From Alphaproteobacteria bacterium (GTDB lineage Bacteria > Pseudomonadota > Alphaproteobacteria > RF32 > CAG-239): a stretch of 64,000 nt of DNA. The notes beneath the pieces were generated by a model that saw only the letters and a list, made by a program, of their open reading frames with translations, was not told the origin of the DNA and searched no databases. A program made the position numbers and the translations under genes. Positions within the stretch are counted from its first letter, which is position 1. Each line of letters opens with the position of its first letter. This document shows, piece by piece, positions 2 through 15,050 of this stretch. Location: the NCBI GenBank assembly GCA_045602545.1, contig JAZSBR010000022.1:17696-81695 (forward strand), given 5' to 3'.

Positions 2-802
2 GAGCAATTTTATAAATATTTTGCAGACGGGTATAAGTTTGAAGAATTTTTGAAAACCTACCTTGAAAAAATAGGTCTTGATGAAGTTGTTGTTACTCAA
101 CGCTCACGTGATGGTGGTAGAGATTTAACTGCAATCCGTACCGGAATTGGTGATTTGGGAGGACAAGATTTTAGGAGGTATTATGTACAAGCTAAACGAT
201 ACAAGCCGTCCACCAGTATAAGAGTTAAAGATGTAAGGGAATTATATTGTGTAGCAGGAAGAGCTCAAGCGGTGGGTATTTTTATTACAACTGCTAAATT
301 TTCGGAAAATACGAGAAATGAATTTAAAGATGATCAAGTAACTCCTATCATTTTGATTGATGGCAAAGATTTGGTTAGTAGCTGCATAGATAATGAGCTT
401 GGTTTTATATATAAACCTATTTTTAATGCTCAAGCTATGGATAAATTGATGCCGTTAAAGAAAGAAGTATCTAATGATATACCGGATGATAATACCAAAA
501 TTCCTGTTTCAGATGCTATTATTGTTGAAAAGAGAATAACGGCAAATGATATTAGGGCAAGGATATTATCACTACCGAAGATAATACTGGATAACATTCC
601 GGCAGAAAAAACATCTATTTCTGTTTGTTTTAATAATGAAACTAATCAAGAGCTTTCTATCAATAAAGGAAGAAATTATCTTGCAAGAGTAACAGAAATT
701 TACCGTAATTATGGATTGTTATCAGATGATGGCACCATTACTCCCGCTACAGCGATATGGCAATTAAAAGATGGGAAATTGAGCATTTTTATTAAAGTAT
801 AA
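2..802 (+). CDS. Mrr-family (type IV) restriction endonuclease, 5'-truncated by the window edge
   Basis: The frame is open from base 2 (EQFYKYFADGYKFEEFLKTYL). It has Mrr_cat motifs FEE, SRDGGRD, VQAKRY and GIFITTAKFS, plus an extra C-terminal domain. Confidence 0.85.
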   Translation, partial: EQFYKYFADGYKFEEFLKTYLEKIGLDEVVVTQRSRDGGRDLTAIRTGIGDLGGQDFRRYYVQAKRYKPSTSIRVKDVRELYCVAGRAQAVGIFITTAKFSENTRNEFKDDQVTPIILIDGKDLVSSCIDNELGFIYKPIFNAQAMDKLMPLKKEVSNDIPDDNTKIPVSDAIIVEKRITANDIRARILSLPKIILDNIPAEKTSISVCFNNETNQELSINKGRNYLARVTEIYRNYGLLSDDGTITPATAIWQLKDGKLSIFIKV

Positions 803-957
803 CACACTTCATTCAAAAAAAAGCCTTTCCAAGCACTTACATAAATTATCCATATTGAGTTTGCTTACTTTTCAAGAAATTATAAAAAATATGGTCAAAA
901 AGATGATGAATTGAAATTTCGAGATAATGGGATAATGATTATAGTCATACTTATCTA

Positions 958-2439
958 TTATGATTTACTCGCTGATAATTTTATCTTTCCATCAATAATT
1001 ACTATTTCACTTTCTATGTTAAGTTCTTTTTTTCTATTGAATAATTTTTGTATCCTTTTATCTGATTTTTTTTCATCCTTTTCTAAATCTATGTATATAT
1101 AATAAGCTTTAGTGACATGTCCTGTACATTTTTTATATATTTCTAATTGATTATCTAAGCCCTTCAAATAGTTAGGACTAGATGATAATTTCAATTCTAT
1201 TAAAATTTTAAAGCAATTACCACGAGATAATTTAAAATCTACTGGGCCCAACCCAGTTTCTGCCTCTGGAGAAATGTCTATATCATTCTCTTCACAAGTC
1301 CTTTTGCAGTATAAAAGAAAAGCATTTTGCCACGAACATTCTTTTTGTTTTTCTAGACTACGTAAAATTTTATTGTTATTTTGCATTGTATCTGCAAATC
1401 CATAAATTACGCTATCTATAATTTCTAGAGGGGTTTGTTTTTGACTAATTTGAAGCCGGATATTCGGAAATATTTCTTCTAATTTAGATAAAATATTAAA
1501 ACCTAAACTATCTTCCGAAAAGTCATATGGAACTTTTTTATCATTATTAACAAAAAGTCTTAATGCCTTTAAAGCTTCTTTATCTTCTTTTATGTAATCT
1601 TTTGTTTCTCTCTTTATTTCTGATATACTCTCCTTATTTTCAGCAGCTCTTTTTAATATTTCTGCTATATCTTGGTTAATCCTTTGCCTAATAGCGTCGT
1701 TATCTTCATTAATTGCACAAAATCTACCCAATACATCTTTTACATCAAGAACTTTATCTAAAGGAGATAATATATCACGAGGTACAAAAAATAAATATGT
1801 ATCATATAAAGGATGCTTAGGTAATTTATAATAGCATCCTTCTATTCCATATATTTCTGTATTTATTCCCATTTCATTTGCTATCTTCTCAGAAAAAGAT
1901 GCTAATTCATGAATTATAATATGAGCAGTCATATCACTAACGTAATCTGGACCAAATCCTTCTTCCAATAAAAACAAAACTGAAAATATTCCTGTGTTAT
2001 TTGAGCCTTTTAAAATGAGTTTTTCAGCAGAATTATATAGCATTTCAGCGATTTTATGTCCTGTTCCGCGTCCTGCAGTCCCATAACGAGAATAACCAAG
2101 TCCTAATCCTTTTTGCTCTCCAAATCTCAAATCATTCAATATACCTTGTTTAGCTTTTTCTTTATCTATTCCTGTTAGCTCTTTAGTCAGTAATATACGT
2201 TGGCATAATTTCTGAAAAAAATCTTCGTATTTACTGCGTGCATTTTCGCTAAAAATTTTATGACTTGAAGTCTTTAATAACATAGGGTCAATAAAAAGCC
2301 TAACATCTTTATTAAATGTTGGATTTAATAATTGTCTTTTCTCAAATTCATTCTTATCCAGTTTCAGATAATCAGATAAGATTCTTGTTTGTAATTCTAA
2401 ATTATTCATACTACATTCCTTTATGATTACCTTTAGCAA
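958..2439 (-). CDS. Hypothetical protein with a C-terminal PD-(D/E)XK nuclease-like domain; candidate defence protein
   Basis: 493-aa ORF with the C-terminal pattern EAETGLGPVDF...ILIELK...QLEIY. The true start may be the second Met (MNNLE). Confidence 0.6.
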   Translation of the reverse strand: MLKVIIKECSMNNLELQTRILSDYLKLDKNEFEKRQLLNPTFNKDVRLFIDPMLLKTSSHKIFSENARSKYEDFFQKLCQRILLTKELTGIDKEKAKQGILNDLRFGEQKGLGLGYSRYGTAGRGTGHKIAEMLYNSAEKLILKGSNNTGIFSVLFLLEEGFGPDYVSDMTAHIIIHELASFSEKIANEMGINTEIYGIEGCYYKLPKHPLYDTYLFFVPRDILSPLDKVLDVKDVLGRFCAINEDNDAIRQRINQDIAEILKRAAENKESISEIKRETKDYIKEDKEALKALRLFVNNDKKVPYDFSEDSLGFNILSKLEEIFPNIRLQISQKQTPLEIIDSVIYGFADTMQNNNKILRSLEKQKECSWQNAFLLYCKRTCEENDIDISPEAETGLGPVDFKLSRGNCFKILIELKLSSSPNYLKGLDNQLEIYKKCTGHVTKAYYIYIDLEKDEKKSDKRIQKLFNRKKELNIESEIVIIDGKIKLSASKS

Positions 2440-2575
2440 TATGATGTGCTATGCTTATTTTACATGATTGTTCTTTATGTTTCAAGACACTGCTGACAAT
2501 CATTTAAAAATTTAGGATTTCTTTTTTCATGAATTCATACTTTTAGAAGAGAATAATATCATAATAGCAAGACAA

Positions 2576-4636
2576 TTATATTACTTCTAATCCTATACTC
2601 TTCAAATATTCAAATGTCCCGTCATAGTATTTTGGATTTCTAGTCCCATCTTCTGGATTTCCCTCCGGAACACAAATAATCATACCCTGTCTAGCACGCG
2701 TTAGCAAGACCCTATAAGCATTTATTTGAAAAGCTTTTCTTTCCTCTGAACGAATGTTTTGCCACTTATTTCCTGTAAATGAATAATTACCCCAGGTATC
2801 ATTTTCACGTCGCAGATCTCCATCCCAAACAATACAAGTCCAGTCTAGTTCCAGGCCTTGAACATCAAACTCTGAGGCAGCATCTTCTAAGAACAAAGAT
2901 GACCTGATATCATCAATATCATCCAAAAACCAATGCACTGTATCCGGTTTACAACGTACATCGATAGATAAAGGCCTTAAGCGTTGAGCCTGAGATGATA
3001 CTAACATACCATAACGTTCAGAACCTCTTTTCTGCTGTTTAAGCCAAGCCTTTGCTTTATCCAGTGAACGTGTTAAAACTATTGGATATCTATCTTTTAG
3101 GGATCCATACAATCTTTTTGCATCCTCTACATCAGAAGCCAAAAGCGCATGAACGAATTCAGATAACTGTTCGGCACGAAATGATCGCATAGACACAGCC
3201 AGGTGTAAATCTGATTTCTTCCGAACTCGAGTGTTATTCTCCAATAATTTATCAATTTCCCCTGTTGCATACTCTTTATCTCTCAATTTATCAGAAATAA
3301 AGACATTCCAATTAGAAAAACTACTATTGATAGCTCTAAGCCATTCAGAAATGCCTGCTTCACCGGTATTAATTTCCTGACCACCGCCAACTAAACAAAT
3401 AATGACAGCCCAATCCTCACGCAAATCCAATGACCAAATCAAAAATTCTGGTTCAGACATTGGAAAATCTTTAATTCCCTGTTTACGTGATAACCAGTTA
3501 GCTAACTGTTGCTGTGTCCATGCACGTTGGGCTTCATCGAAAATAGCGACGTGCTCAACTTCTGAATAACCATCTTCCTGATGCTTTTTAACTTTTGCTG
3601 GATCAATTTCCAAAATTCCATCGCGAATTGGCGTCTTAATCTTGCTTAAAGAGGTATTGCGGTAATGGTGCACAATTTGAATAAAGGATTTTACATTCCG
3701 CCTTGCCTCAGTAAGTGTATAATGCTTTTCTGGATTTTTCTCATTTTCCTGTCTTTTTTTATCCCGAGCCAGCGCTTCGGTTAAAACATCCACCAACGGC
3801 TGATTGCCGGACAGATATACCGCTAAATCACCTTGGTTGAATTGTTGAACAGCAACATTTAAGCCTACTAAGGTCTTTCCGGCTCCCGGCACACCAGTTA
3901 CAAAACAAATAGATTTTTCGTGATTATCCCGGGAATATTGTATAATTTGAGAGATAAAATCTGTTGTTTGCTGTAAACTTTGACCGGAAGCTTCTGTACG
4001 CGTAATATCTTTCACCGAGTGATTTAGATAAAGCGAACTTGCCGCCTGAATAATTGTCGGTGTTGGCTTATAACGGCTGTTTTTCCAATCGCTCAAGTCA
4101 ATATTTACAGCGTGTTGAGCTTTTATTTTTTGAATTACATTGCTGAATTCATCCGCATTACATAAAATAGGTTCAAAAACAAGGTCATTATAGTGACTAA
4201 ATTGCTGAATTTGTGAACTATCTTTAGCATTTGTGGCAATTAAAATCGGAACAACCATCAAATTATGGCTAGCTTCATGAAAATTTTTCAAATCCAACGC
4301 GTAATCCCATACCTGTTCTATATCTTGACGCAGATATTCAGTGGAATTAACCTTAAATTCCAAAGCGTAAACAATTCCGCTTATCAGTAAAACAACATCT
4401 ATTCGCTTGCCCAATCGTGGAATATCATATTCAAAGATAATTTGTCCTTTGTCATTTTGCAGAATTGACCTCAACAGGTTAATTTCTTCTTCCCATGCAT
4501 TTCTTTGCAGATCAGTAATATCAAATGGCGAATTTCTCACGAGCGAGCCTAAGATATAGTTAGAATCACTCTTTATAAAGTTCTCAATTGTATCTGCGTA
4601 AAAATATCTGTTCATTTTAATGGTCTTTCTGCTCAA
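2576..4636 (-). CDS. DUF2075 / Schlafen-group-3-like helicase with an N-terminal nuclease-like domain
   Basis: N-terminal FEY..RIDVVL..LEFK, Walker A GVPGAGKT, DEAQR, QGLELD and NAYRVLLTRARQG. Confidence 0.85.
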   Translation of the reverse strand: MSRKTIKMNRYFYADTIENFIKSDSNYILGSLVRNSPFDITDLQRNAWEEEINLLRSILQNDKGQIIFEYDIPRLGKRIDVVLLISGIVYALEFKVNSTEYLRQDIEQVWDYALDLKNFHEASHNLMVVPILIATNAKDSSQIQQFSHYNDLVFEPILCNADEFSNVIQKIKAQHAVNIDLSDWKNSRYKPTPTIIQAASSLYLNHSVKDITRTEASGQSLQQTTDFISQIIQYSRDNHEKSICFVTGVPGAGKTLVGLNVAVQQFNQGDLAVYLSGNQPLVDVLTEALARDKKRQENEKNPEKHYTLTEARRNVKSFIQIVHHYRNTSLSKIKTPIRDGILEIDPAKVKKHQEDGYSEVEHVAIFDEAQRAWTQQQLANWLSRKQGIKDFPMSEPEFLIWSLDLREDWAVIICLVGGGQEINTGEAGISEWLRAINSSFSNWNVFISDKLRDKEYATGEIDKLLENNTRVRKKSDLHLAVSMRSFRAEQLSEFVHALLASDVEDAKRLYGSLKDRYPIVLTRSLDKAKAWLKQQKRGSERYGMLVSSQAQRLRPLSIDVRCKPDTVHWFLDDIDDIRSSLFLEDAASEFDVQGLELDWTCIVWDGDLRRENDTWGNYSFTGNKWQNIRSEERKAFQINAYRVLLTRARQGMIICVPEGNPEDGTRNPKYYDGTFEYLKSIGLEVI

Positions 4637-4801
4637 CTTGGATAAATACTATCTCCGGTAATGTTTTTTTGCAAGAATTAATTAGGAAATAACACACGAT
4701 TACTGCGAAAATCATCCAAGATATCATATCATACATCTGAATTTATGAATAATTATAATTTTCCCTCCAACGGTAAAAATGTTTGAATTTTGCCGGCCAT
4801 G

Positions 4802-5260
4802 TTATTTAATTTTATGATTTAAGGCGCTCTTTGGTAAATATTTATTGCAACCGCCAGTTTTAAGCATATACTGATTAACATCAATCACACCGGCAGATTT
4901 TATATCATCTAAATAGACTTTGCCTAAAATACGACCGAAAGAATCACGTTTTCCCCATTCAACTCTTATGTATCTATGGTCTTTAAGTAATTTTTTTAGT
5001 ATTTTCCGTGACTGTTTACCTTTTTCAAGCACTTCATCATAAGATAATCCATAGTATTTTTGTTGAAACTTTGCTCTTGCATTTTTCTTGGTTTCATAAC
5101 AATCAACATCAAGCAAGCGGATCTTTGTATTTTCATTATTAACCAGAGCCGTTAGTGTATCCCCATCATTTATTTTGATTATAGTTGCCACAAACTCATG
5201 CGCATAAACTATCTGCACATAAAATAAAGCGAAAAATGTAGTTGTTATAAACTTAAACAA
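4802..5260 (-). CDS. Thermonuclease (SNase family) with a probable signal peptide
   Basis: DGDT, IRLLDVDCYE and DSFGRILG motifs. The start was moved to the TTG at 5260, which precedes a hydrophobic signal (LFKFITTTFFALFYVQIVYA). The ORF-track extension to 5416 runs through a structured RNA. Confidence 0.8.
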   Translation of the reverse strand: MFKFITTTFFALFYVQIVYAHEFVATIIKINDGDTLTALVNNENTKIRLLDVDCYETKKNARAKFQQKYYGLSYDEVLEKGKQSRKILKKLLKDHRYIRVEWGKRDSFGRILGKVYLDDIKSAGVIDVNQYMLKTGGCNKYLPKSALNHKIK

Positions 5261-5261
5261 T

Positions 5262-5489
5262 GACAAACACCAATCAGCCCAAGTAAAACGCACTAGGCGG
5301 TGGATGTCGTTAACTGCAATCAACGCGAGATGCAGCTCACATATTCGTGCAAGCCTTATTTTTGTGAGCATCCACCATATCGGTGTCTGCCCTATGACGT
5401 AATATCCTATTGACATTAAACAATAGTTATTACCGCCCGCGTTGATTAGGTTTAACGATTACCTGTTGAAGTTCGGGCATTCCCCAACA
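5262..5489 (-). ncRNA. Unassigned highly structured leader RNA/ncRNA upstream of the thermonuclease
   Basis: Several helices whose G-U wobbles work only on the minus strand: 5482-5489/5464-5471, 5436-5447/5318-5329 and 5379-5391/5262-5274. Also 5452-5458/5307-5313, 5369-5376/5299-5306 and 5363-5369/5335-5341. The 5' end matches a predicted promoter. Confidence 0.65.
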
Positions 5490-5494
5490 AGTAC

Positions 5495-5523
5495 ACTATA
5501 AGCATATAATCTTAACAAATCAA
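5495..5523 (-). promoter_or_regulatory. Sigma70-type promoter for the structured RNA/thermonuclease
   Basis: Minus strand TTGATT-17 nt-TATAGT; predicted TSS ~5489. Confidence 0.6.
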
Positions 5524-5551
5524 TAAAAAAGATGTTTTACGTAAAATAGAG

Positions 5552-5583
5552 CTTAATTTATACCCTCAGAGATACAAATTAAA
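5552..5583 (-). repeat. 32-bp quasi-palindromic site, copy A (inverted relative to B and C)
   Basis: Reverse complement TTTAATTTGTA-TCTCTGAGGG-TATAAATTAAG; 3 mismatches to the consensus TTTAATTTGTA-TCTCTAAGGG-TACAAATTAAA. Confidence 0.75.
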
Positions 5584-5637
5584 TATGTAAACTTTAATTT
5601 AAGCCTTTACTGTTAATCTAACTTTAAGAGGTATATT

Positions 5638-6834
5638 ATGGCACGTATAAATATCAGAGACTCATATAAACAATGGCTTATAAAGCAAGGCTTAAAGACT
5701 GAAACACCGGGCAAACATTCCAGCACGGTGACCGAATATTTACGACGGATTGATCGTATTTGCGATAAACATTATAAAAGCCATGACGCTACTGCTTGGA
5801 ATAAATTAACTAAAAACATTCAGGCCTTATTAATTTCTTATCATGAATGCCAAACCAAGGAATATCTAATCAACAAACAAAACATTGATGCTTTTCTAAA
5901 ATATTTTAATGATATTTCAAACAGTAATCAAATTAATCTAAATTTAAAAGTCAAGCTTAGTTTTATCAGCCAGAAAGAAAGCCAATTCATCACTATAACG
6001 ACTTTCAAAGAGCTTATTTCTTTTGTTTTGGTGTTTAAGGGCATTTTAGATATTGCAAAAAATATATCGAAATTAAGCGAAATTCATGATGTTCTCACCT
6101 TTTACAAGTTGACTTTTTCTAATGGAGCTCCGGAACGACAAATTTCATTATACCAAAACGCTATTGAAAAATTATCATGTAGCGATTCTCTGATCGAAAA
6201 TTTAATATTACACGTCGAATATATGAATGATTATACGGTTAAAGGCTTGGCCGGCTTAAATAAATTTTATACCTTTTTAAGTAATCCGCCGGCAAATGAT
6301 AACAATCGAACCTCATTACATCTTGTAAAACTAAAAAAAGACCGTGATGATGATAAGATTAATAACTGCCTTATCATTATTTCCGGTTATCGTGATAATT
6401 TCATGAAATGCCTTACCCAGACCAATCAGACAGGAAGCACGGCATTACAAATAAAAGCGCATTCTCAAACAGGAGGTTATCTACGTGCTGATGAAGTTGC
6501 TAATGTATTTGGTATTGATCCTAAAACACTTTGGAGATTAAAAAAAGACGAACTTTTTATGCCTGACTACGATACTTTTTATCATGAAGATAGAATTAAT
6601 CAATATCTACAAGAGCATTTTCATAGAGCGCAACCGCCATATTCCGATGTAGATTACTCTAGAAAAAATCTTAAATGGCATAATCGCCGTGATGTTGCCA
6701 GAATTCTCGGCGTAACAGAAAGAACAATTCTTAATTACACTAAAAAGGGCATATTAACCTATACAGATTATGCCCCCAAAGCTCCGCGATACTATCCCCC
6801 AGAAATAGAATTCTTGACAAATAAAAGATCTTAA
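5638..6834 (+). CDS. DNA-binding protein with an N-terminal integrase core-binding-like helical domain and two C-terminal MerR/excisionase-type HTHs
   Basis: HTH-like segments YLRADEVANVFGIDPKTLWRL and NRRDVARILGVTERTILNYTKKG; N-terminal YKQWL...STVTEYLRRI; RBS GAGG. Confidence 0.65.
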   Translation: MARINIRDSYKQWLIKQGLKTETPGKHSSTVTEYLRRIDRICDKHYKSHDATAWNKLTKNIQALLISYHECQTKEYLINKQNIDAFLKYFNDISNSNQINLNLKVKLSFISQKESQFITITTFKELISFVLVFKGILDIAKNISKLSEIHDVLTFYKLTFSNGAPERQISLYQNAIEKLSCSDSLIENLILHVEYMNDYTVKGLAGLNKFYTFLSNPPANDNNRTSLHLVKLKKDRDDDKINNCLIIISGYRDNFMKCLTQTNQTGSTALQIKAHSQTGGYLRADEVANVFGIDPKTLWRLKKDELFMPDYDTFYHEDRINQYLQEHFHRAQPPYSDVDYSRKNLKWHNRRDVARILGVTERTILNYTKKGILTYTDYAPKAPRYYPPEIEFLTNKRS

Positions 6835-6996
6835 TTTTTCTGAAAACAAAAAAAATTAAAAAATTTTTCTCTTATTTTCCTACATTCCCGATTCAATGAT
6901 TTTACTTATCCAATTTTAAAATATATATTAAGAGTATAGCGAGGCATAAAAACCAAGCTATAGAATCGTAACATATTTTATAAAAGGATTAAAAAA

Positions 6997-8829
6997 ATGA
7001 ACACAAATTTAGTATTAAAATCTGAAGTTTTGGCAGATGCAAATTTTTCAGAAGAAAAAATCATAGGCAACCAACATGATTTTGAATTGCCGGGCAATAT
7101 AAATATTACTTCGGTGATTGATATTATTAAAAACAACAACTTATCTGAAGATAAATTAAAAGATTTATTGAAAAATCAGGCTAATGATAACCTCTTTCCT
7201 GTATATACAAAGAGCGAAGATCAGCAAAATTTATCTATTATTGAAATTGAGCAGAAAATTCAGGCTGAAATAAAAAATTTACAAACCGCCCCTTTATCCA
7301 AAGACGCTTATAAGAACAGAATTATGTCAGCTCAGAACAAAGCAGCATATCTCTTAATTGCGGAATGTGCATTAGCTGAAGAATTGCGCGCGATTCCAAA
7401 GAAGCAAGGAAAACACAATAATCCTGAATATAAAACAAAATTGCAATATATAAAGGATACGTATGGCTTAACGCGCAAGCCTGCACTGGCTATACAAAAA
7501 TTACAATGGGAAAATGTTATTGCTGCTATCACATGGGCATATAAAAATGAGGAAATTCCCACACGTTCTTTAGCTCTCTCAAGTAATAAAAAGATAAAAA
7601 ACGAAAAAGAGAAAAATAAAAATCTTGCCATTGACGCAATAAAATTATCTTTGGATCCTAAGTATGAAAATGAATATAAGACACTTAATCTGTCAGAACC
7701 ATTGTACGCTACTTCATTATTTGCTTGCATTGGCTCCGGAACTTCAAGACTTAAAGAATTAAATATACATTGTGCTGTAGCTAATGAATATTTATCGGAA
7801 AGAGCTGAAATTCATAAAAAATTAGATCCTGATTGTTTAATGATACAAGGTGACATAAAAAATAAAAAGATATTAAAACAGATTGTAGCGGCAAATAAGC
7901 AAAAGGGCTGTAAATTGCTTTTGGCCTCTCCTCCTTGTCAGGTTGCATCTCAATTAAATACTGCTAAAGATAAAGAAGAAAAAATAGAGTCTACCTTATT
8001 TTATGATACAATCAAGTTCATTAAATCCACACATAACGACTTTATTGTCATTGAAAATGTGCCGCAATGGTTAAATTCTTGCCCTAAAGCTGCTAAAAAA
8101 ATTTTATGGAGTAAAGACAGAAAAACATATATCACAATCGGAGAATATATGAAACATCAGCTTGAAATGTTGGGATACAACGTGAATATTGAAATTGTAA
8201 ATGCAGCTGATTATTGGACCGGAGAAGAAAGAAAACGCTGTATAATTCTTGCATGCAAAAGAAAATACGGTGTTTGGAAATTTCCGAAAAAAGCTTTACG
8301 CAAACTTTCGTTATGGCAAGTAATTGGTGATTTACCGAGTATTGAACCGGGGATGTCTGTATCATCTTATAAATGGCATTACGCTCTTCCTTTGGAGCCA
8401 TGTAAAATAAGATTTTTAGCTCATACGCCGACTGCCTGTTCTGCATTTGATAACGCCGGTGAATATCAACCGGTTAATACAGATGGAACACCAAGCAAAG
8501 CACAATTTGAAGCCGCTTTCACAAGATTAGACTGGAATAAGCCTTGTAAAACAATTACAACAAGCAGCAATTATATCGGTGGAACTTATACTTTGCATCC
8601 GGGATATGCATTAACCGATGGTACATATTCTGATTGCCGTGTTTTATCTATATTAGAATTATTAAGAATTATAGGTTTACCTGAAGATTTTCTCGAACCC
8701 TTAGACCTTCCGATGGATAATAATAACATGTTAACCCCAGATGATGATAGCTTTATCAGAGAAGTTCTTGGTGAACACGTTTGTCCAAAAATGTATAATG
8801 CCTTAATGACTACCCTACCATTAAAATAA
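6997..8829 (+). CDS. DNA (cytosine-5)-methyltransferase with a ~230-aa N-terminal extension
   Basis: Motif I SLFACIG, motif IV SPPCQ, motif VI ENV, motif VIII ERKR, motif IX RVLSILE and motif X GEHV. Confidence 0.9.
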   Translation: MNTNLVLKSEVLADANFSEEKIIGNQHDFELPGNINITSVIDIIKNNNLSEDKLKDLLKNQANDNLFPVYTKSEDQQNLSIIEIEQKIQAEIKNLQTAPLSKDAYKNRIMSAQNKAAYLLIAECALAEELRAIPKKQGKHNNPEYKTKLQYIKDTYGLTRKPALAIQKLQWENVIAAITWAYKNEEIPTRSLALSSNKKIKNEKEKNKNLAIDAIKLSLDPKYENEYKTLNLSEPLYATSLFACIGSGTSRLKELNIHCAVANEYLSERAEIHKKLDPDCLMIQGDIKNKKILKQIVAANKQKGCKLLLASPPCQVASQLNTAKDKEEKIESTLFYDTIKFIKSTHNDFIVIENVPQWLNSCPKAAKKILWSKDRKTYITIGEYMKHQLEMLGYNVNIEIVNAADYWTGEERKRCIILACKRKYGVWKFPKKALRKLSLWQVIGDLPSIEPGMSVSSYKWHYALPLEPCKIRFLAHTPTACSAFDNAGEYQPVNTDGTPSKAQFEAAFTRLDWNKPCKTITTSSNYIGGTYTLHPGYALTDGTYSDCRVLSILELLRIIGLPEDFLEPLDLPMDNNNMLTPDDDSFIREVLGEHVCPKMYNALMTTLPLK

Positions 8830-8851
8830 AATAGCTCAGAACCTCGAATAT

Positions 8852-8881
8852 AAAGGGCAGAATGCAAAGTTCTGTCCTTTT
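8852..8881 (+). terminator. Intrinsic terminator after the methyltransferase
   Basis: AAAGGGCAGAA-tgcaaag-TTCTGTCCTTT hairpin ending in a T run. Confidence 0.65.
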
Positions 8882-8910
8882 AATTTGTATCACTAAGGGA
8901 ACGAATTTAA
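8879..8910 (+). repeat. 32-bp quasi-palindromic site, copy C
   Basis: TTTAATTTGTA-TCACTAAGGG-AACGAATTTAA; 4 mismatches to the consensus. Confidence 0.7.
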
Positions 8911-9424
8911 AGCGTGATAAATCAACATTACTCTTGATTTTGAAGTTATAATCTGATTATACTCAAATCAGATATAGTAAAATATATCTTGAGTGCCAAT
9001 AGGTGCAAGAGAGCTTTGAACGGCTCATTATACATCGCGGTACGGATGATACCGATAGGCTTATTTCTTGGATTTAAGCCACATTGCCTTGACATTTATG
9101 GTCGAGGAGCTTGTGGCATATGTCCAGAAGCTGTACTTGACAATGAAAGATTGGTTTTAAAAGCCACAAGAGTCATCACGATGTATATGATTGTTCAACT
9201 CCTCGACCACCTCTATTGGGTGGTTTTTGCTTTTTATATAGTATTTGTTGGAGCAATTGAAAAGTGGCTGAAAATATAAATAAAAACTTTTTGAATCCTG
9301 ATTGGTGGAAAAGAGCACTTATTAGAACTATTATAGATGAAATAGATAAGGGTATAGATGTAGATGAAATGGATAACAAGGTTTTAAACTGTGCCATTAA
9401 AAAGTTCAGCCGATAGTATTAAAG

Positions 9425-9637
9425 ATGAGAGAAACAACGCATTGTTTCTCTAGTGATATTTCAAGCGAAATTATGAAACAAATAAGTATTACACATAAAC
9501 AAAATGAGAAAATAAAAAAATTAAACGATAAAAATAAACAAAACGAAATGAACATAAGTAAGTTAAGGGCTGATATACAACGATGGAGTAACAATTTCAA
9601 GAATCAATCAGCAAACATAGAGGAATATGAATTATGA
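9425..9637 (+). CDS. Small coiled-coil hypothetical protein (possibly a gene fragment)
   Basis: 70-aa ORF coupled to the next ORF by an ATGA overlap. Confidence 0.35.
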   Translation: MRETTHCFSSDISSEIMKQISITHKQNEKIKKLNDKNKQNEMNISKLRADIQRWSNNFKNQSANIEEYEL

Positions 9638-9978
9638 ATATTATCCCTTTGCTATTTACAATAATACATAAAAGAAAAAAAGATAAACTCAAAAAACTTT
9701 TAAATCATTTGAAAGCATTATCAACTTTCAAAAATAATCAAGAATTAATTGACACTCAAAATAAAATGATAGAACAACTTCAGAAGAAAAATATAAATGA
9801 CGAAAATGAGATAAAAAGACTAATACAAGCGAAATCGGTAATACAATCTAAACGAAGCGGATTAATAAGTGGAAACATTAAAGTTAGCGAGCAAGCTTAT
9901 TCTGGAGACCATATTTTTCAAACCAAAAGCCCTTTCTATAAACCCATTGAAAAAGATCATAATGATGAAGAACAGTAA
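9634..9978 (+). CDS. Hypothetical coiled-coil protein
   Basis: 114-aa ORF with RBS GAGG and translational coupling. Confidence 0.5.
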   Translation: MNIIPLLFTIIHKRKKDKLKKLLNHLKALSTFKNNQELIDTQNKMIEQLQKKNINDENEIKRLIQAKSVIQSKRSGLISGNIKVSEQAYSGDHIFQTKSPFYKPIEKDHNDEEQ

Positions 9979-10004
9979 TATAACATTTTGAAAGGACGCA
10001 TTCT

Positions 10005-10982
10005 ATGAAAATTGAAATTGGGGAATCATTATTTTATTCTTGGTTACGACATATTAAGAACTGCCGAATAGTCCAAACAAATTGGAAAACTTCTAGTTCT
10101 TGGAAAATTTATCATGAAGAAGAATTGGAAAAACTTTATAACGCTGCCTTAATAGAGTTTTCCGATTGTTTAATAAAAAAAGATAAATTACCTCTCGGAC
10201 AGTTTTTGAAACAAGCTGAAATTGATGTTATCGGGAAAAGTGAAAATAATGAATTTTACGTAATAGATGTTGCTTTTCATAAAAATACCTGCAACTATAG
10301 CGGTAATGGAAATAGTAATGAAAAAAACATAACAAAAAAGTTAATAAGAGCTGCTTTTTGTTTATATGGTTATTTTGATACCAAAAAAGGTTTTATTATA
10401 TTTGCCACCCCAAAATTTGGAAAAACTTCTTTAGATAGAACACAACAATGCATAACAAAAGTCAAAGAGTTCTTTTCAAATAATGGTTTTAAATTTAATG
10501 TGGAATGCATTTGTAACGAAGATTTTAATAATAAAGTAGTTATTCCCGTTACAGAAAAATGTAATGATAATAGTGATACCGCAGAATTGTTTATGCGTGC
10601 TTATGATTTATGCACACTCACTTCTAATGTGAAAAGAAAATCAAAAAATTCTCCAACAGAACCCAAAACGAGCAAAATTAAAAGTACATCTATAAAAATC
10701 GGGCAAATTGTAAAAAACTATCTGATTCCAACTTTACTTAGTAATCAAATATCAATGGAAGAAATTCAAAAACTGCAAGATGCTGACTATTCTAAACAGA
10801 TATTTGATATAAATTATCCTCTTTTATCTAAAGAACGTATTATAAATGGTCGTGCTCGATATTATGTTAGTCCTTTATTAATTAAAGGTGTTAAATATTA
10901 TGTATGCCAAGAATGGTTTAATAGAAATTACCAAAAACTGGAAACTTGGCTTAAAGCACATAATGTAACAATTAAGGACTGA
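10005..10982 (+). CDS. Putative PD-(D/E)XK-type nuclease with a C-terminal DNA-binding-like domain
   Basis: EIGESLFYSWLRH, QAEIDVIG and VIDVAFH; C-terminal RYY...YYVCQEW segment of the kind seen in restriction-associated proteins. Confidence 0.55.
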   Translation: MKIEIGESLFYSWLRHIKNCRIVQTNWKTSSSWKIYHEEELEKLYNAALIEFSDCLIKKDKLPLGQFLKQAEIDVIGKSENNEFYVIDVAFHKNTCNYSGNGNSNEKNITKKLIRAAFCLYGYFDTKKGFIIFATPKFGKTSLDRTQQCITKVKEFFSNNGFKFNVECICNEDFNNKVVIPVTEKCNDNSDTAELFMRAYDLCTLTSNVKRKSKNSPTEPKTSKIKSTSIKIGQIVKNYLIPTLLSNQISMEEIQKLQDADYSKQIFDINYPLLSKERIINGRARYYVSPLLIKGVKYYVCQEWFNRNYQKLETWLKAHNVTIKD

Positions 10983-10985
10983 TTT

Positions 10986-12449
10986 ATGCTCCTATCTAAA
11001 ACTGACTATATTCTCGGCATGGATTGCGAAAAGGCTCTTTGGCTGATAAAACATCATCCGGAGTTAGTGCCTGATGTCGATGTAATGCTACAGCGTCGGT
11101 TTGACATCGGTAATGAAGTGCAAGAATATGCTCGTAAATTATTTCCTTCAGGTAAAATGGTTGGCGATGGTGATATTGAGTACATGACTCATAAAACCGA
11201 GCAGATGTCACAAGAATATAATGTTTTATTTGAAGCGACCGCAATATTGCCAGATAAAGCCTTTTGCCGCATTGATATCATGGAGCGTGAAGGAAACGCT
11301 TGGAATTTAATAGAAATAAAGTCAGCAACAGAAGTTAAGGATAATTACATTGATGATCTTGCCTTTCAAAAATATGTATTTGAAAATGCCGGTTACAAAA
11401 TCAATCGCTTAAAAGTGATATATCTGAACAAATATTACGTACGCAAAGGCATTTTAGATATTCGAGAGCTCTTTGTGATTGAAGATGTTACTTTGCTTGT
11501 AGATGAAGTTTATTCTGATGTTGGTTATAATATTGACGTATTACAGCAATTAATTGAGCAAAACGAAGAACCGGAAGTTCTGTTGCACAAAACAAATCCG
11601 TGTAAAGGCTGCGGTTTTAAATCTTATTGTCGGCGCGATCTGCCTGAATACCCTGCTTTCAGACTATTTTACTATGATAGAGATTGGCAAAAATTTTATA
11701 ATCAGTACAATACATATATTGTTGAAGATATACCGGATAGCTATGAGTTACGCCCTAAAGAAATTATTGATAAGCAATCCTATCTAACAGGAAAAACACA
11801 TATTGAACCTGAAAAAATACAAAATTGGCTAGATACACTTGAGTATCCGTTATATTATTTGGATTACGAAACCGCACAATTAGCAATTCCGCTGTTTGAT
11901 AACTCTAGGCCATATGCTCAAACACCTTTTCAGTTTTCTCTGCATATACAAGAAACCAAAGGCGGAGAATTAAAACACATAAGTTTTTTGCATAAAGATT
12001 GTTCTGATCCGCGACGTGCAATAGCTGAATGTCTGGTTAATAATTGCGGCACAAAAGGCTCGGTTATCGTATACAATAAAACATTTGAAATGACACGTAA
12101 CAAAGAATTGGCCAGTCTTTTTCCGGATTTATCAAAACAGCTCTTGGCAATTAATGAAAGAATCGCCGACCAATATGATATTTTTGATAAACGCTACTTA
12201 TATTGCCCTAAACAAAAGAGTTCGGTATCTATTAAGTACGTTCTACCGGCATTTTGCGATTTGTCGTATCAGGGTATGGAAATAGCCAATGGTGGCGAAG
12301 CCATGAGCGAATATGAAGCTTTCTTAAAAGGTAAGCAAACACCAGAAGAAACGGCAAAAATGTTTAATGCTCTGGAAAAATACTGTGCTCAAGACACTTA
12401 TGCCATGGTTAAACTTATGGAAGTTTTATACCAATACGCCGAGAAATAA
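10986..12449 (+). CDS. DUF2779-containing protein (RecB/Cas4-like nuclease plus RNase H-like domain)
   Basis: LSKTDY..C.K.LWL, RIDI..IEIKS, CxxCxxxxxC, YLDYET, PFQFSLH and YCAQDT. Confidence 0.8.
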   Translation: MLLSKTDYILGMDCEKALWLIKHHPELVPDVDVMLQRRFDIGNEVQEYARKLFPSGKMVGDGDIEYMTHKTEQMSQEYNVLFEATAILPDKAFCRIDIMEREGNAWNLIEIKSATEVKDNYIDDLAFQKYVFENAGYKINRLKVIYLNKYYVRKGILDIRELFVIEDVTLLVDEVYSDVGYNIDVLQQLIEQNEEPEVLLHKTNPCKGCGFKSYCRRDLPEYPAFRLFYYDRDWQKFYNQYNTYIVEDIPDSYELRPKEIIDKQSYLTGKTHIEPEKIQNWLDTLEYPLYYLDYETAQLAIPLFDNSRPYAQTPFQFSLHIQETKGGELKHISFLHKDCSDPRRAIAECLVNNCGTKGSVIVYNKTFEMTRNKELASLFPDLSKQLLAINERIADQYDIFDKRYLYCPKQKSSVSIKYVLPAFCDLSYQGMEIANGGEAMSEYEAFLKGKQTPEETAKMFNALEKYCAQDTYAMVKLMEVLYQYAEK

Positions 12450-12453
12450 CTTC

Positions 12454-13191
12454 TTATTTCTTTGCTATACTCAATAAATAGTTTTTGTATTGCTGCAACC
12501 CGCAAGATATCGTATTATGATGATTTTTGTTGTTAAATGCCAAACGAATTTCCTGATCTTTAGGTGTTGCATCAGGACTATCTTTTGTTAAATAATCCAT
12601 TACTTTTTGAAATTCTTCATAATTTTCAATCAGCCAAAGATTTTTATTTAAAATCTCAGAAGTAACATTAATTGCACTCTTATAACTGTTAATAGTTCCC
12701 TTAGATGGATATTTTTTCTCTAGATACGCAATAAAATGTTTCTGCCTTACCGCTGATACAAAATCATCCCGACTTACTACTTTAAGCGGTGGAGTAAATG
12801 GATTTTTTTTCAAATCTTCTAAATAAGCTGTCGCAACTTGGTTTGAAACCAAAGGACATGATTTAATAAAACTAATAAATGCTCCGTTTAATATATACAC
12901 TTTATTTTCATCTGCATCAGCAAAATTAATGATAACTGTCAAAATATCTTCAATCTTTTCAAGCCAATTACAAAGTTCTTCATCGCTTTGAAAAGCTTTT
13001 GCAACTATTTCTTTTATATCTTCATATTGCGAATCGTTAAAATTTTCCCGTTCTTTAAGAATCTGCGCCAGTAATTTTGTGTTTTGCATCAGGCTATCAT
13101 CTTTTTTTAGATTCCTTGCTACTGCCGTAGGTATAATGCTTTCTGTTAACACAAACTTACACCAAATATTGCTTAAATTTCCATCAGTCAT
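12454..13191 (-). CDS. Hypothetical protein with a C-terminal integrase core-binding-like helical domain
   Basis: Start moved to the ATG at 13191 (RBS GGGAG). C-terminal FIAYL...GTINSYKSAI...SCGLQQYKNYL. Confidence 0.6.
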   Translation of the reverse strand: MTDGNLSNIWCKFVLTESIIPTAVARNLKKDDSLMQNTKLLAQILKERENFNDSQYEDIKEIVAKAFQSDEELCNWLEKIEDILTVIINFADADENKVYILNGAFISFIKSCPLVSNQVATAYLEDLKKNPFTPPLKVVSRDDFVSAVRQKHFIAYLEKKYPSKGTINSYKSAINVTSEILNKNLWLIENYEEFQKVMDYLTKDSPDATPKDQEIRLAFNNKNHHNTISCGLQQYKNYLLSIAKK

Positions 13192-13367
13192 TATTTTCTC
13201 CCTATCAGACAAACTCAATATAAAACGAAAACTATAAAAAATCAATATATTTATAGTAAAATAACATTTTAGCACCATATTTCGCACAAAATCTATAAAA
13301 AATAAAATTATAGAGTATTGATTTTACATAATAATTAAAAATTTTACTATTTTTTATAATTTTTTTC

Positions 13368-13400: not shown

Positions 13401-13493
13401 ATCAACCTATAAGGAGTTGTGCGAGGGACAAGCCCTATGACCACACAGCAACCGACAAAATGCACGGTGCTAAAGCTTGGATGATAGGTGGAT
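13401..13493 (+). promoter_or_regulatory. SAM-I (S-box)-type riboswitch aptamer, P4-less variant, copy 1
   Basis: P1 ACCTAT/ATAGGT; J1/2 AGGAG; P2 with kink-turn GA/GA; P2b GGG/CCC with loop ACAAG able to pseudoknot with CTTG; P3 AGCAACCG/CGGTGCT. Confidence 0.88.
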
Positions 13494-13500
13494 TTTTGAA

Positions 13501-13529
13501 GCCTATCGTTGTCGATGGGTTATTTTTTT
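13501..13529 (+). terminator. Expression-platform terminator of riboswitch copy 1
   Basis: GCCTATCG-ttgt-CGATGGGT followed by TATTTTTTT. Its 5' arm CCTATC can instead pair with GATAGG of P1 as an antiterminator. Confidence 0.85.
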
Positions 13530-13585
13530 ACTCTCGTTCTCTCCTTTGGGTTATTGTATTAACTTTTTTCATTAGGAGAAATTCT

Positions 13586-13993
13586 ATGGTAACAAATAAA
13601 AGATGGGCTTTCAAAAAAAATAAATCAGGTGTAGCAAGATGTTGCCGCGCTAAAGGAGTTAATGTTAATAATGATATTTGTCTCGCATCTATAAAACAAA
13701 CTCTTTACAAATTACAATATGTATATTGGGCAGATATGGATGACAAAACATTTTTAAATAGAGATTGGACATTTATTTTTCATGATCAATACAAAAAACT
13801 TTTTCATATATTCTCTATTCCTAAAGGACAATTGACGCCAGATTTAAGGAAAGCTAACAGAAAGCTTAATTTAGTCGACTGGAATATAAAAACAGCTTTC
13901 TATAAAGATGTAGATACTGGCTTTGATTTCAGTAATTTTTTTGTTAAAACAATTAGGTATGATGACCAAGATATTCTAAAATATGATAATTAG
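13586..13993 (+). CDS. Hypothetical protein (135 aa) downstream of riboswitch copy 1
   Basis: The ATG at 13586 has RBS AGGAG. The ORF-track start at 13460 lies inside the riboswitch. Confidence 0.7.
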   Translation: MVTNKRWAFKKNKSGVARCCRAKGVNVNNDICLASIKQTLYKLQYVYWADMDDKTFLNRDWTFIFHDQYKKLFHIFSIPKGQLTPDLRKANRKLNLVDWNIKTAFYKDVDTGFDFSNFFVKTIRYDDQDILKYDN

Positions 13994-14302: not shown

Positions 14303-14331
14303 TATCGGTTAAATAAACCGAAAATATGGAA

Positions 14332-14414
14332 ACCTATAAAGAGTGTGCGAGAGACAAGCTCTATGACCACACAGCAACCGGCAAAAGCACGGTGCTAAAG
14401 CTTGAATGATAGGT
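14332..14414 (+). promoter_or_regulatory. SAM-I (S-box)-type riboswitch aptamer, P4-less variant, copy 2
   Basis: Same architecture as copy 1. P2b is GAG/CTC instead of GGG/CCC (a compensatory change); P2a is GTGTG/CACAC. Confidence 0.88.
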
Positions 14415-14423
14415 AACTTTAGA

Positions 14424-14453
14424 AGCCTATCGCTGTCGATGGGTTTATTTTTT
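14424..14453 (+). terminator. Expression-platform terminator of riboswitch copy 2
   Basis: AGCCTATCG-ctgt-CGATGGGTT followed by TATTTTTT. Confidence 0.85.
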
Positions 14454-14495: not shown

Positions 14496-15050
14496 ATGAC
14501 TTTAGAACAATATAATCAATGTTTACATGCGATAGATAAACAAATTGAAGAATTGCAACAGTCGCGTGAAGTTTTGATTACGCAAAATAAAGAAAAAATC
14601 GAAAAGCAAATCATTAAACGGCAGCAAGATGACCGCAAATGGTTTGTAAGCAATTTCGATGTGTTTTGGAACAATAGGCATAAATTTAATAAGAATACAC
14701 CAAATGCCGATATAATTATTGATTTTTTCAATATCTATACAAGAGGAAATAAGGCAGGTAGTAAGTCGGTTTGGCATATATCAATCAGCGACTTAATCAC
14801 CCTATGGGAGTTAGGTTATAAATATCAAGGCTATCCTATTGTTGAATATATCGGCCATGCTTTCGCCCATGAATTAACGTATATCAAGGACGGAAAATTG
14901 GTTACCGTTACCAATTTTAGAGAAGAATCACTAGGTTTTTCGCCGGTTTTATATGCAATCTTGGAATATTTAAGCACGCACAAAATCATTTCAAGTGGTT
15001 TTGAAGAATACAAAACCCTTAAAGGAATGAGAGATATTTTAGCAAACTAA
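14496..15050 (+). CDS. Hypothetical protein, paralogue 1 of a tandem triplet
   Basis: RBS GGAG; N-terminal coiled coil; motif IIIDF..YT...ISDLITLWELGYKYQGYPIV. Confidence 0.75.
   Translation: MTLEQYNQCLHAIDKQIEELQQSREVLITQNKEKIEKQIIKRQQDDRKWFVSNFDVFWNNRHKFNKNTPNADIIIDFFNIYTRGNKAGSKSVWHISISDLITLWELGYKYQGYPIVEYIGHAFAHELTYIKDGKLVTVTNFREESLGFSPVLYAILEYLSTHKIISSGFEEYKTLKGMRDILAN

Follow-up and report, generated by a model that had tools for sequence, protein, structure and literature searches.

The window, by which we mean the whole 64,000-nucleotide stretch of DNA analyzed here, carries on its minus strand at positions 5262 to 5489 what is confirmed to be a real folded RNA leader of ~235 bases, lying ahead of an exported nuclease gene. 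We put at roughly 0.6 the probability that this is an attenuator- or riboswitch-like leader at the 5′ end of the mRNA encoding an exported nuclease of the SNase family, and that it is one copy of a large family. The family comprises leaders of 160 to 260 nt, is absent from Rfam, and occurs in one family of uncultured gut/rumen Alphaproteobacteria; it is filed here as a new family working by a known principle, in which RNA conformation controls termination or the initiation of translation. A complex, covarying leader RNA family with classical expression platforms that is missing from Rfam and counts well over 100 copies is a rare find, and it is directly testable as an orphan riboswitch or attenuator.

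Positions 5262 to 5489 are bracketed on the minus strand by an SNase-family open reading frame (ORF) and a promoter-like TTGATT-17-TATAGT. The initial annotation had described this region as a GC-richer patch encoding a structured RNA of ~230 nt with two crossing folds, A and B; the GC content is 0.42 to 0.46 in the patch versus 0.27 to 0.33 in the flanks, and every helix that was named lies where it had been placed. The minus strand has a minimum free energy (MFE) of −83.8 kcal/mol, compared with −62.3 ± 4.7 kcal/mol for shuffles (z −4.58; 0 of 200 shuffles as good), while the plus strand reaches only −63.4 kcal/mol (z −3.27). An inverted-repeat search recovered the long helix of fold A as arms of 21 nt (5307-5327/5438-5458, 81% complementary), and direct sequence reading gave the 13-bp outer helix of fold B (5379-5391/5262-5274), including three G·U pairs. 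The segments GGTGGATG/CATCCACC (5369-5376/5299-5306) are 100% complementary over 8 nt. Relatives were compared in two fixed alignments, one of 42 full copies and one of 79 copies aligned by covariance model, and the parts of the window copy, with the percentages and compensatory pairs that these alignments gave, are as follows.

5495..5523, minus strand: promoter-like site, with −35 TTGATT at 5523-5518, a 17-nt spacer, and −10 TATAGT at 5500-5495 (consensus scan).
5465..5488, minus strand: hairpin H1, 5488-5482 pairing with 5471-5465; 95.9% paired with 5 compensatory pairs (42 copies), 7 compensatory pairs (79 copies).
5448..5464, minus strand: hairpin H2, 5464-5461 pairing with 5451-5448, its loop being the 5′ strand of A1; 74.1% paired, 4 compensatory pairs (79 copies).
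5437..5458, minus strand: 5′ strand of helix A, in which A1 (5458-5453) pairs with 5312-5307 and A2 (5448-5437) pairs with 5328-5317.
5399..5433, minus strand: variable hairpin H3; 78% paired, 10 compensatory pairs (42 copies).
5379..5391, minus strand: 5′ strand of outer helix B1; 80.3% paired, 7 compensatory pairs (42 copies).
5369..5376, minus strand: putative switching strand X1 (GGUGGAUG), the 5′ strand of B2, pairing with 5306-5299; 100% paired (42 copies), 96.2% paired with 4 compensatory pairs (79 copies).
5336..5368, minus strand: hairpin B3, a covarying stem with 6 compensatory pairs (79 copies).
5307..5335, minus strand: hairpin B4, 5335-5332 pairing with 5317-5314, its loop being the 3′ strand of A2 (5328-5317), followed by the 3′ strand of A1 (5312-5307).
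5299..5306, minus strand: strand Y1 (CAUCCACC), the 3′ strand of B2 (complementarity and both alignments).
5262..5280, minus strand: 3′ tail, with GGGC at 5280-5277, the 3′ strand of B1 at 5274-5262, and the Shine-Dalgarno (SD)-like GGUG at 5271-5268 inside the B1 strand.
4802..5260 including the stop codon, minus strand: SNase-family nuclease gene (Pfam SNase, E 2e-8; NCBIfam EcnA-like, E 3.5e-12, below the curated cut-off).

Both of the crossing helix sets carry compensatory changes. Helix A is 93 to 94% paired in A1 and about 97% in A2, with 13 compensatory pairs in the 42 copies and 17 in the 79. In the 42 copies, B4 pairs in 100% of cells and shows 2 compensatory pairs, and B2 has a single compensatory pair (30 A-U, 12 G-C). 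Both lie outside the structure of the covariance model, and in the 79 copies pairing is still 96.2% for B2 (4 compensatory pairs) and 87.8% for B4 (3 compensatory pairs). The interior of B3 is nearly invariant (AAAUAAGG, a CUUG-type mini-loop, and CGAAUA), and this motif is kept in all subfamilies. H2 falls in a noisily aligned region, where stem variants are visible among copies, and H3 is missing from mini variants of ~165 nt. GCCC in the H1 loop (5478-5475) may pair with GGGC at 5280-5277; the pairing is retained in 98% of cells of the 42-copy alignment with zero double changes, and GGGC at two other places fits it nearly equally. A GGGCUGA-nn-GG motif is conserved in subfamily 1.

Taken over the combined structure, 89.7% of cells in the 42 copies are paired, versus 78.4% in column shuffles and 37 to 47% with slid partners, and double-change cells number 385 versus 136 in shuffles. 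In the 79 copies, the corresponding values are 91.7%, 66.0%, and 36 to 46%, with a covariation score of 0.627 versus 0.191. Covariation in homologues, proposed in the initial annotation as a check, is therefore present in both alignments, and it shows the architecture of H1, H2/A1, A2, optional H3, B3, B4, and B2 to be the conserved core. Helix cells of the 42-copy alignment hold 260 G·U/U·G versus 44 A·C/C·A, which identifies what folds as gene-sense RNA; this bears out the minus-strand-specific G-U pairs noted earlier.

The downstream product has a signal-peptide-like N terminus. Its start is TTG 5260-5258, with an alternative in-frame TTG at 5266-5264 (ATG in copy L046); other copies have GTG or TTG at the matching start-codon position. 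The proposal that fold B buries the SD-like GGUG just before the TTG start holds to the extent that B1 covers GGUG, 7 nt ahead of TTG 5260-5258, and is qualified by the alternative start. As to the transcript start, predicted near 5489 from the promoter-like hexamers, the hexamers that had been read as a start site are present and recur; they are found in most aligned leader copies with a varying spacer (L016, whose 5′ part is replaced, has none) and just upstream of every leader copy inspected. The hexamers alone are at chance level (8 sites in the region versus 6.3 expected). Contigs of four metatranscriptome runs from four studies lie inside the leader (5299-5475, 5304-5455, 5246-5402, and 5323-5436), and a metatranscriptome contig at 5159-5352 spans the junction of leader and ORF. 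These contigs, in which strand, ends, and true RNA origin are not readable and DNA carry-over is possible, lend weak support to transcription of the leader; they cover it and leave 5550-5700 and 4700-4800 uncovered, gaps that are uninformative because flanks differ among copies.

At the site, Rfam 15 gave no match, whether positions 4000 to 7000 were scanned at E ≤10 or the whole window at the gathering score, and no tRNAs were found. Tandem repeats of the kind expected for a ToxI-like type III toxin-antitoxin RNA number zero in 5100 to 5650, and no reverse transcriptase, as in a retron msr-msd, was detected by Pfam among the 10 ORFs scanned (2 to 13287). The leader portions of the seven loci in the window's own genome likewise had no match among the 4,227 models of Rfam 15 at E ≤0.1, the sole hits being to tRNA elsewhere in L068. 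The initial annotation, which did not recognize the family, is upheld on this point. The listings from a full-text literature search contained no description of the leader RNA.

A BLASTN search detected the element in 10 of 36 genomes from the same genus and in 0 of 24 from other families; across the genus, 14 of 50 genomes, that of the window (G000) included, carry it, some in two copies. BLASTN alone understated the size of the family, and a covariance model (R1, built on fold A) was needed. With this model, the window's own genome has two strong and five weaker full-length matches, and the alignments of these loci display the same architecture with new covarying sequences. Within the order, 73 of the 151 genomes have matches, with as many as six copies in one genome and 16 of the 20 genera represented; in family f1 the figure is 72 of 149. 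In the rest of the class, a match was found in 1 of 150 genomes. Short matches of 38 nt to the B3 hairpin proved to be complete mini leaders of ~165 nt, so these genome counts are lower bounds. A motif pattern for the invariant loop gave 23 loci in species-representative genomes and 26 metagenome loci (49 distinct versions together) and 0 matches in viral contigs. All 23 representative-genome loci are titled as uncultured Alphaproteobacteria, proteobacterium, or Rhodospirillaceae, mostly metagenome-assembled genomes, and most of the titles give a rumen, reticulum, or gut sample source. Identity between copies is 69 to 98%. Flanking genes vary between loci, which indicates that the promoter and RNA move together with their gene.

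What follows the leader was surveyed in a set of 78 chosen copies, with downstream ORFs sorted by simple motif rules. A same-strand ORF of at least 45 codons begins a short distance downstream in 75 of the 78; these are YpsA-like (25), SNase (9), lipoprotein-like (5), BspA-type leucine-rich repeat (LRR; 3), prepilin-like (2), Endonuclease I (1), and other or unassigned (30), and no ORF was found in the remaining 3. Pfam supports Endonuclease I behind leader L061 (E 7e-33) and YpsA/SLOG proteins (E about 4e-7 to 8e-7), and it also gives PEGA lipoproteins, HTH_3 regulators, an EcoRI-type methylase, a GT2 glycosyltransferase, and a SAM methyltransferase; 27 of the 46 downstream proteins scanned have no family. 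In the window's own genome, the remaining leaders stand ahead of one YpsA-like gene and five paralogues with ..ITFKK C termini.

These five paralogues (L069 to L073; G000 contigs C17, C14, C10, and C33) have 300 to 463 codons and end in ..(V/I)(T/I)ITFKK; four of the five have a BspA-type LRR_5 match, and each has its own terminator-type leader of the family. The conserved ITFKK C terminus may be a sorting or secretion signal. Eight loci (L004, L023, L045, L046, L053, L061, L064, and L066) carry a small HTH gene of the XRE type, located behind the SNase or Endonuclease I gene or overlapping its end; that of L045 matches Pfam HTH_3 at E 2.5e-14, and the window copy has no such gene.

Several loci are altered. 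The SNase-type leader of L006 (G007:C19) is intact, and its nuclease frame is broken after 47 codons. In L016, L047, L052, and L062, all SNase-type, the promoter-like site, H1, H2, and the 5′ strand of helix A are replaced by a common AT-rich sequence, and in L052 and L062 the nuclease frame is truncated as well. L082 and L097 have leaders without a gene directly behind and a strong promoter-like site next; L097 lacks the 5′ half and is followed by a SecE-like ORF. The mini leaders L148 and L149 (G076) and L150 (G079) share an identical foreign sequence with an identical junction ~20 nt past B3; it follows B4 and replaces the 3′ strand of A1 and B2, and its downstream part is reversed in L150. 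This looks like a site-specific insertion element targeting the leader.

Two kinds of leader end were seen. A GC-rich, terminator-like hairpin with a U-run closes the leader in 46 of the 78 copies (called with a simple purpose-written script), and in 45 of these 46 the 5′ arm of the terminator overlaps Y1, the 3′ strand of B2, by 1 to 8 nt, most commonly 3. In the other 32, including the window copy, the leader runs into an SD-like site and start codon. X1 has an upstream local hairpin partner of at least 6 bp in 45 of 78 copies, versus 20% of shuffles; in the window copy, CACC (5385-5382) in the 5′ strand of B1 has an alternative local pairing with GGUG (5376-5373), the hairpin Hloc. The local hairpin changes in step with X1 (CACC/GGUG, CGUC/GACG, CUCC/GGAG). 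In some subfamilies, conserved sequence extends beyond the terminator to the SD.

From these overlaps we infer conformational switching. X1 would have two competing partners: Y1, giving B2, and a sequence close upstream that mimics Y1, giving Hloc. In terminator-type relatives, Y1 would overlap the base of the terminator, such that B2 would act as antiterminator and Hloc plus terminator would form the off state. The window copy has no terminator, and its output would be translational, with two pairings open to the segment from GGUG to the start codon: one with the strand beside X1, which forms B1 and goes along with B2, and a weaker one with Y1. Calculated ensemble energies for the window copy are −84.9 kcal/mol with helix A enforced and −80.2 kcal/mol with B1 and B2 enforced, and by this folding model the gap would be small enough to permit switching. 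Pairings that strictly exclude one another are those competing for the GGUGGAUG strand (X1), Y1, and the upstream mimic. The initial annotation held that folds A and B are either alternatives or a pseudoknot; covariation backs both folds, and several of the helices could coexist as pseudoknots. Linker lengths suggest, on geometric reasoning, two H-type pseudoknots in which A1 could form alongside H2 and A2 alongside B4; folds A and B may in that case be largely one fold.

Several observations speak against reading the leader as a switch. GGUG is paired in both proposed states of the window copy, and no open on state is evident; B2 would turn terminator-type members on and the window copy off (via B1); the overlap of B2 and terminator is just 2 to 4 nt in most copies; and the genes served are very diverse, so that a global signal fits better than a single metabolite. 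The earlier claim of a novel cis-regulatory switch gating a nuclease thus stands as to a covarying, sense-strand leader directly before the start codon. It does not stand as nuclease-specific, and its switching part is the conditional scheme given above.

A more specific form of the attenuator- or riboswitch-like reading, which we advance tentatively and would not bet on at even odds, is a new riboswitch class: a multi-pseudoknotted aptamer of ~160 to 260 nt, acting as putative signal sensor, with terminator or SD platforms and a lineage-wide regulon. The regulon proposed as part of it, and equally tentative, would include secreted nucleases, YpsA/SLOG proteins, LRR adhesin-like proteins, lipoproteins, pilins, and small XRE regulators. 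The leader points to a hidden regulon in abundant, uncultured, small-genome gut/rumen Alphaproteobacteria and connects genes that are little annotated (YpsA/SLOG, BspA-type LRR proteins with ITFKK ends, and PEGA lipoproteins); the identity of the trigger would reveal what the carriers sense when remodelling surface and secreted proteins.

The leader could instead adopt one static, multi-pseudoknotted fold in which H2/A1, B4/A2, B2, and B3 form together, with a constitutive role such as docking of protein or RNA polymerase, stabilization of the mRNA, or, where a terminator follows, a stand-alone small RNA. Every crossing helix covaries, as such a fold would have it, and linkers of 1 to 3 nt beside stems of 4 to 11 bp resemble classical H-type pseudoknots, as reasoned from the sequences. 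The terminator in 46 of 78 copies would release an RNA of ~200 nt, and MFE folds of two terminator-type members place body and terminator side by side. X1, however, has two conserved and mutually exclusive partners; the overlap of terminator arm and B2 in 45 of 46 copies is unexpected if the modules are independent; and in some subfamilies the conserved sequence does not stop at the terminator but reaches the SD. A search of the genome for a specialized NusG paralogue or CsrA partner found one NusG and no CsrA, which also counts against a static role. We regard a static fold as unlikely, though it deserves to be weighed.

Control of surface and secreted proteins by a new class of c-di-GMP riboswitch is far less probable. 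The gene set behind the leaders (adhesin-like LRR proteins, pilins, lipoproteins, and nucleases) resembles what we take to be known c-di-GMP regulons, and the genome has a GGDEF gene but no PilZ and no match to RF01051 (c-di-GMP-I) or RF01786 (c-di-GMP-II), which made c-di-GMP look attractive. Five strong leader carriers that are 97 to 100% complete (G130, G138, G161, G174, and G175; E 8e-18 to 1.5e-29) have no GGDEF at E ≤1e-5, and in genus g30 the leader occurs in 8 of 19 genomes versus GGDEF in 2 of 19. On account of these five carriers, c-di-GMP was rejected as the trigger. For other second messengers, the genome has no DAC-domain gene for c-di-AMP and one RelA/SpoT gene; (p)ppGpp is a possible trigger.

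Slightly less credible again is a selfish MITE/REP-like repeat, with inverted repeats folding by chance and no regulatory role. Multiple copies per genome (up to six), the presence of copies plus gene in differing genomic contexts, and the four copies with a replaced 5′ half would all suit a mobile repeat. The copies, at 69 to 98% identity, are not near-identical and their orientation is not independent of genes, since a same-strand ORF soon follows 75 of 78; their changes are compensatory and not random, G·U exceeds A·C by 260 to 44 cells, and the promoter-like hexamers are kept despite a variable spacer. Translation of the leader as an N-terminal extension of the nuclease, for which an ATG at 5416 opens a frame of 204 codons (4802 to 5416), has a negligible chance of being right: 1-nt and other non-triplet alignment gaps, together with a frame that closes at different places inside the leader among copies (in L004 and L005 it reaches only ~14 codons ahead of the start), indicate that the leader is not coding, double substitutions are paired, and unrelated proteins stand behind the same leader.

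Set beside known systems, the leader as an attenuator- or riboswitch-like element has its closest parallels in pseudoknotted riboswitches, with which it shares a covarying, pseudoknot-rich 5′ untranslated domain on the sense strand, optional variable hairpins, nearly invariant internal-loop nucleotides, multiple copies per genome, and a closing helix one strand of which is also used by the terminator or SD pairing. As in riboswitches generally, the structured domain covaries in the sense of the gene and the platform shares a strand with it, through the terminator arm and B2 in 45 of 46 copies and through B1 over GGUG in the window copy. It differs in having no Rfam match, in serving genes without a common metabolic theme, and in being larger than most aptamers (~235 nt, with a long-range helix of 17 to 22 bp). 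Its chain of segments, namely Y0 (the upstream mimic), X1, Y1, and the 3′ arm of the terminator, in which Y0:X1 plus terminator excludes X1:Y1, is that of trp-type attenuators and T-box leaders. Unlike these, it serves genes other than amino-acid genes, and no leader peptide was apparent in those copies that were read; the Rfam T-box model had no match at the site or in the seven own-genome leaders.

Leaders of the JUMPStart/ops-RfaH, EAR, and LoaP types presumably also precede numerous genes for accessory, surface, or secreted proteins, in many cases with a leader terminator, and we take these elements to be short or structurally unrelated to the present family; here, moreover, there is a single NusG-family gene and no specialized paralogue is evident. 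With raiA and the metagenome-derived orphan RNAs of Rfam, the family has in common that it is a lineage-restricted, complex, covarying orphan RNA found comparatively. Unlike them, it matches none of the 4,227 Rfam 15 models and has clear expression-platform features.

The nuclease module lies within a defence-island-like stretch (2 to 12449) of the window. This holds an Mrr-type restriction endonuclease (2 to 802), a PDC-S41/Schlafen-type helicase (2576 to 4636; PADLOC E 3e-272), an HTH_17 protein (5638 to 6834), a C5 DNA methylase with an N-terminal extension of ~235 amino acids (6997 to 8829), and a DUF2779/Cas4-like protein (10986 to 12449). Beyond it, two SAM-I riboswitch aptamers lie ~900 nt apart on the plus strand at 13404-13521 and 14331-14445; their scores, 53.9 and 57.3 bits, exceed the gathering score. 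They are followed by ORFs at 13460-13993, whose listed start falls inside the aptamer, and 14496-15050.
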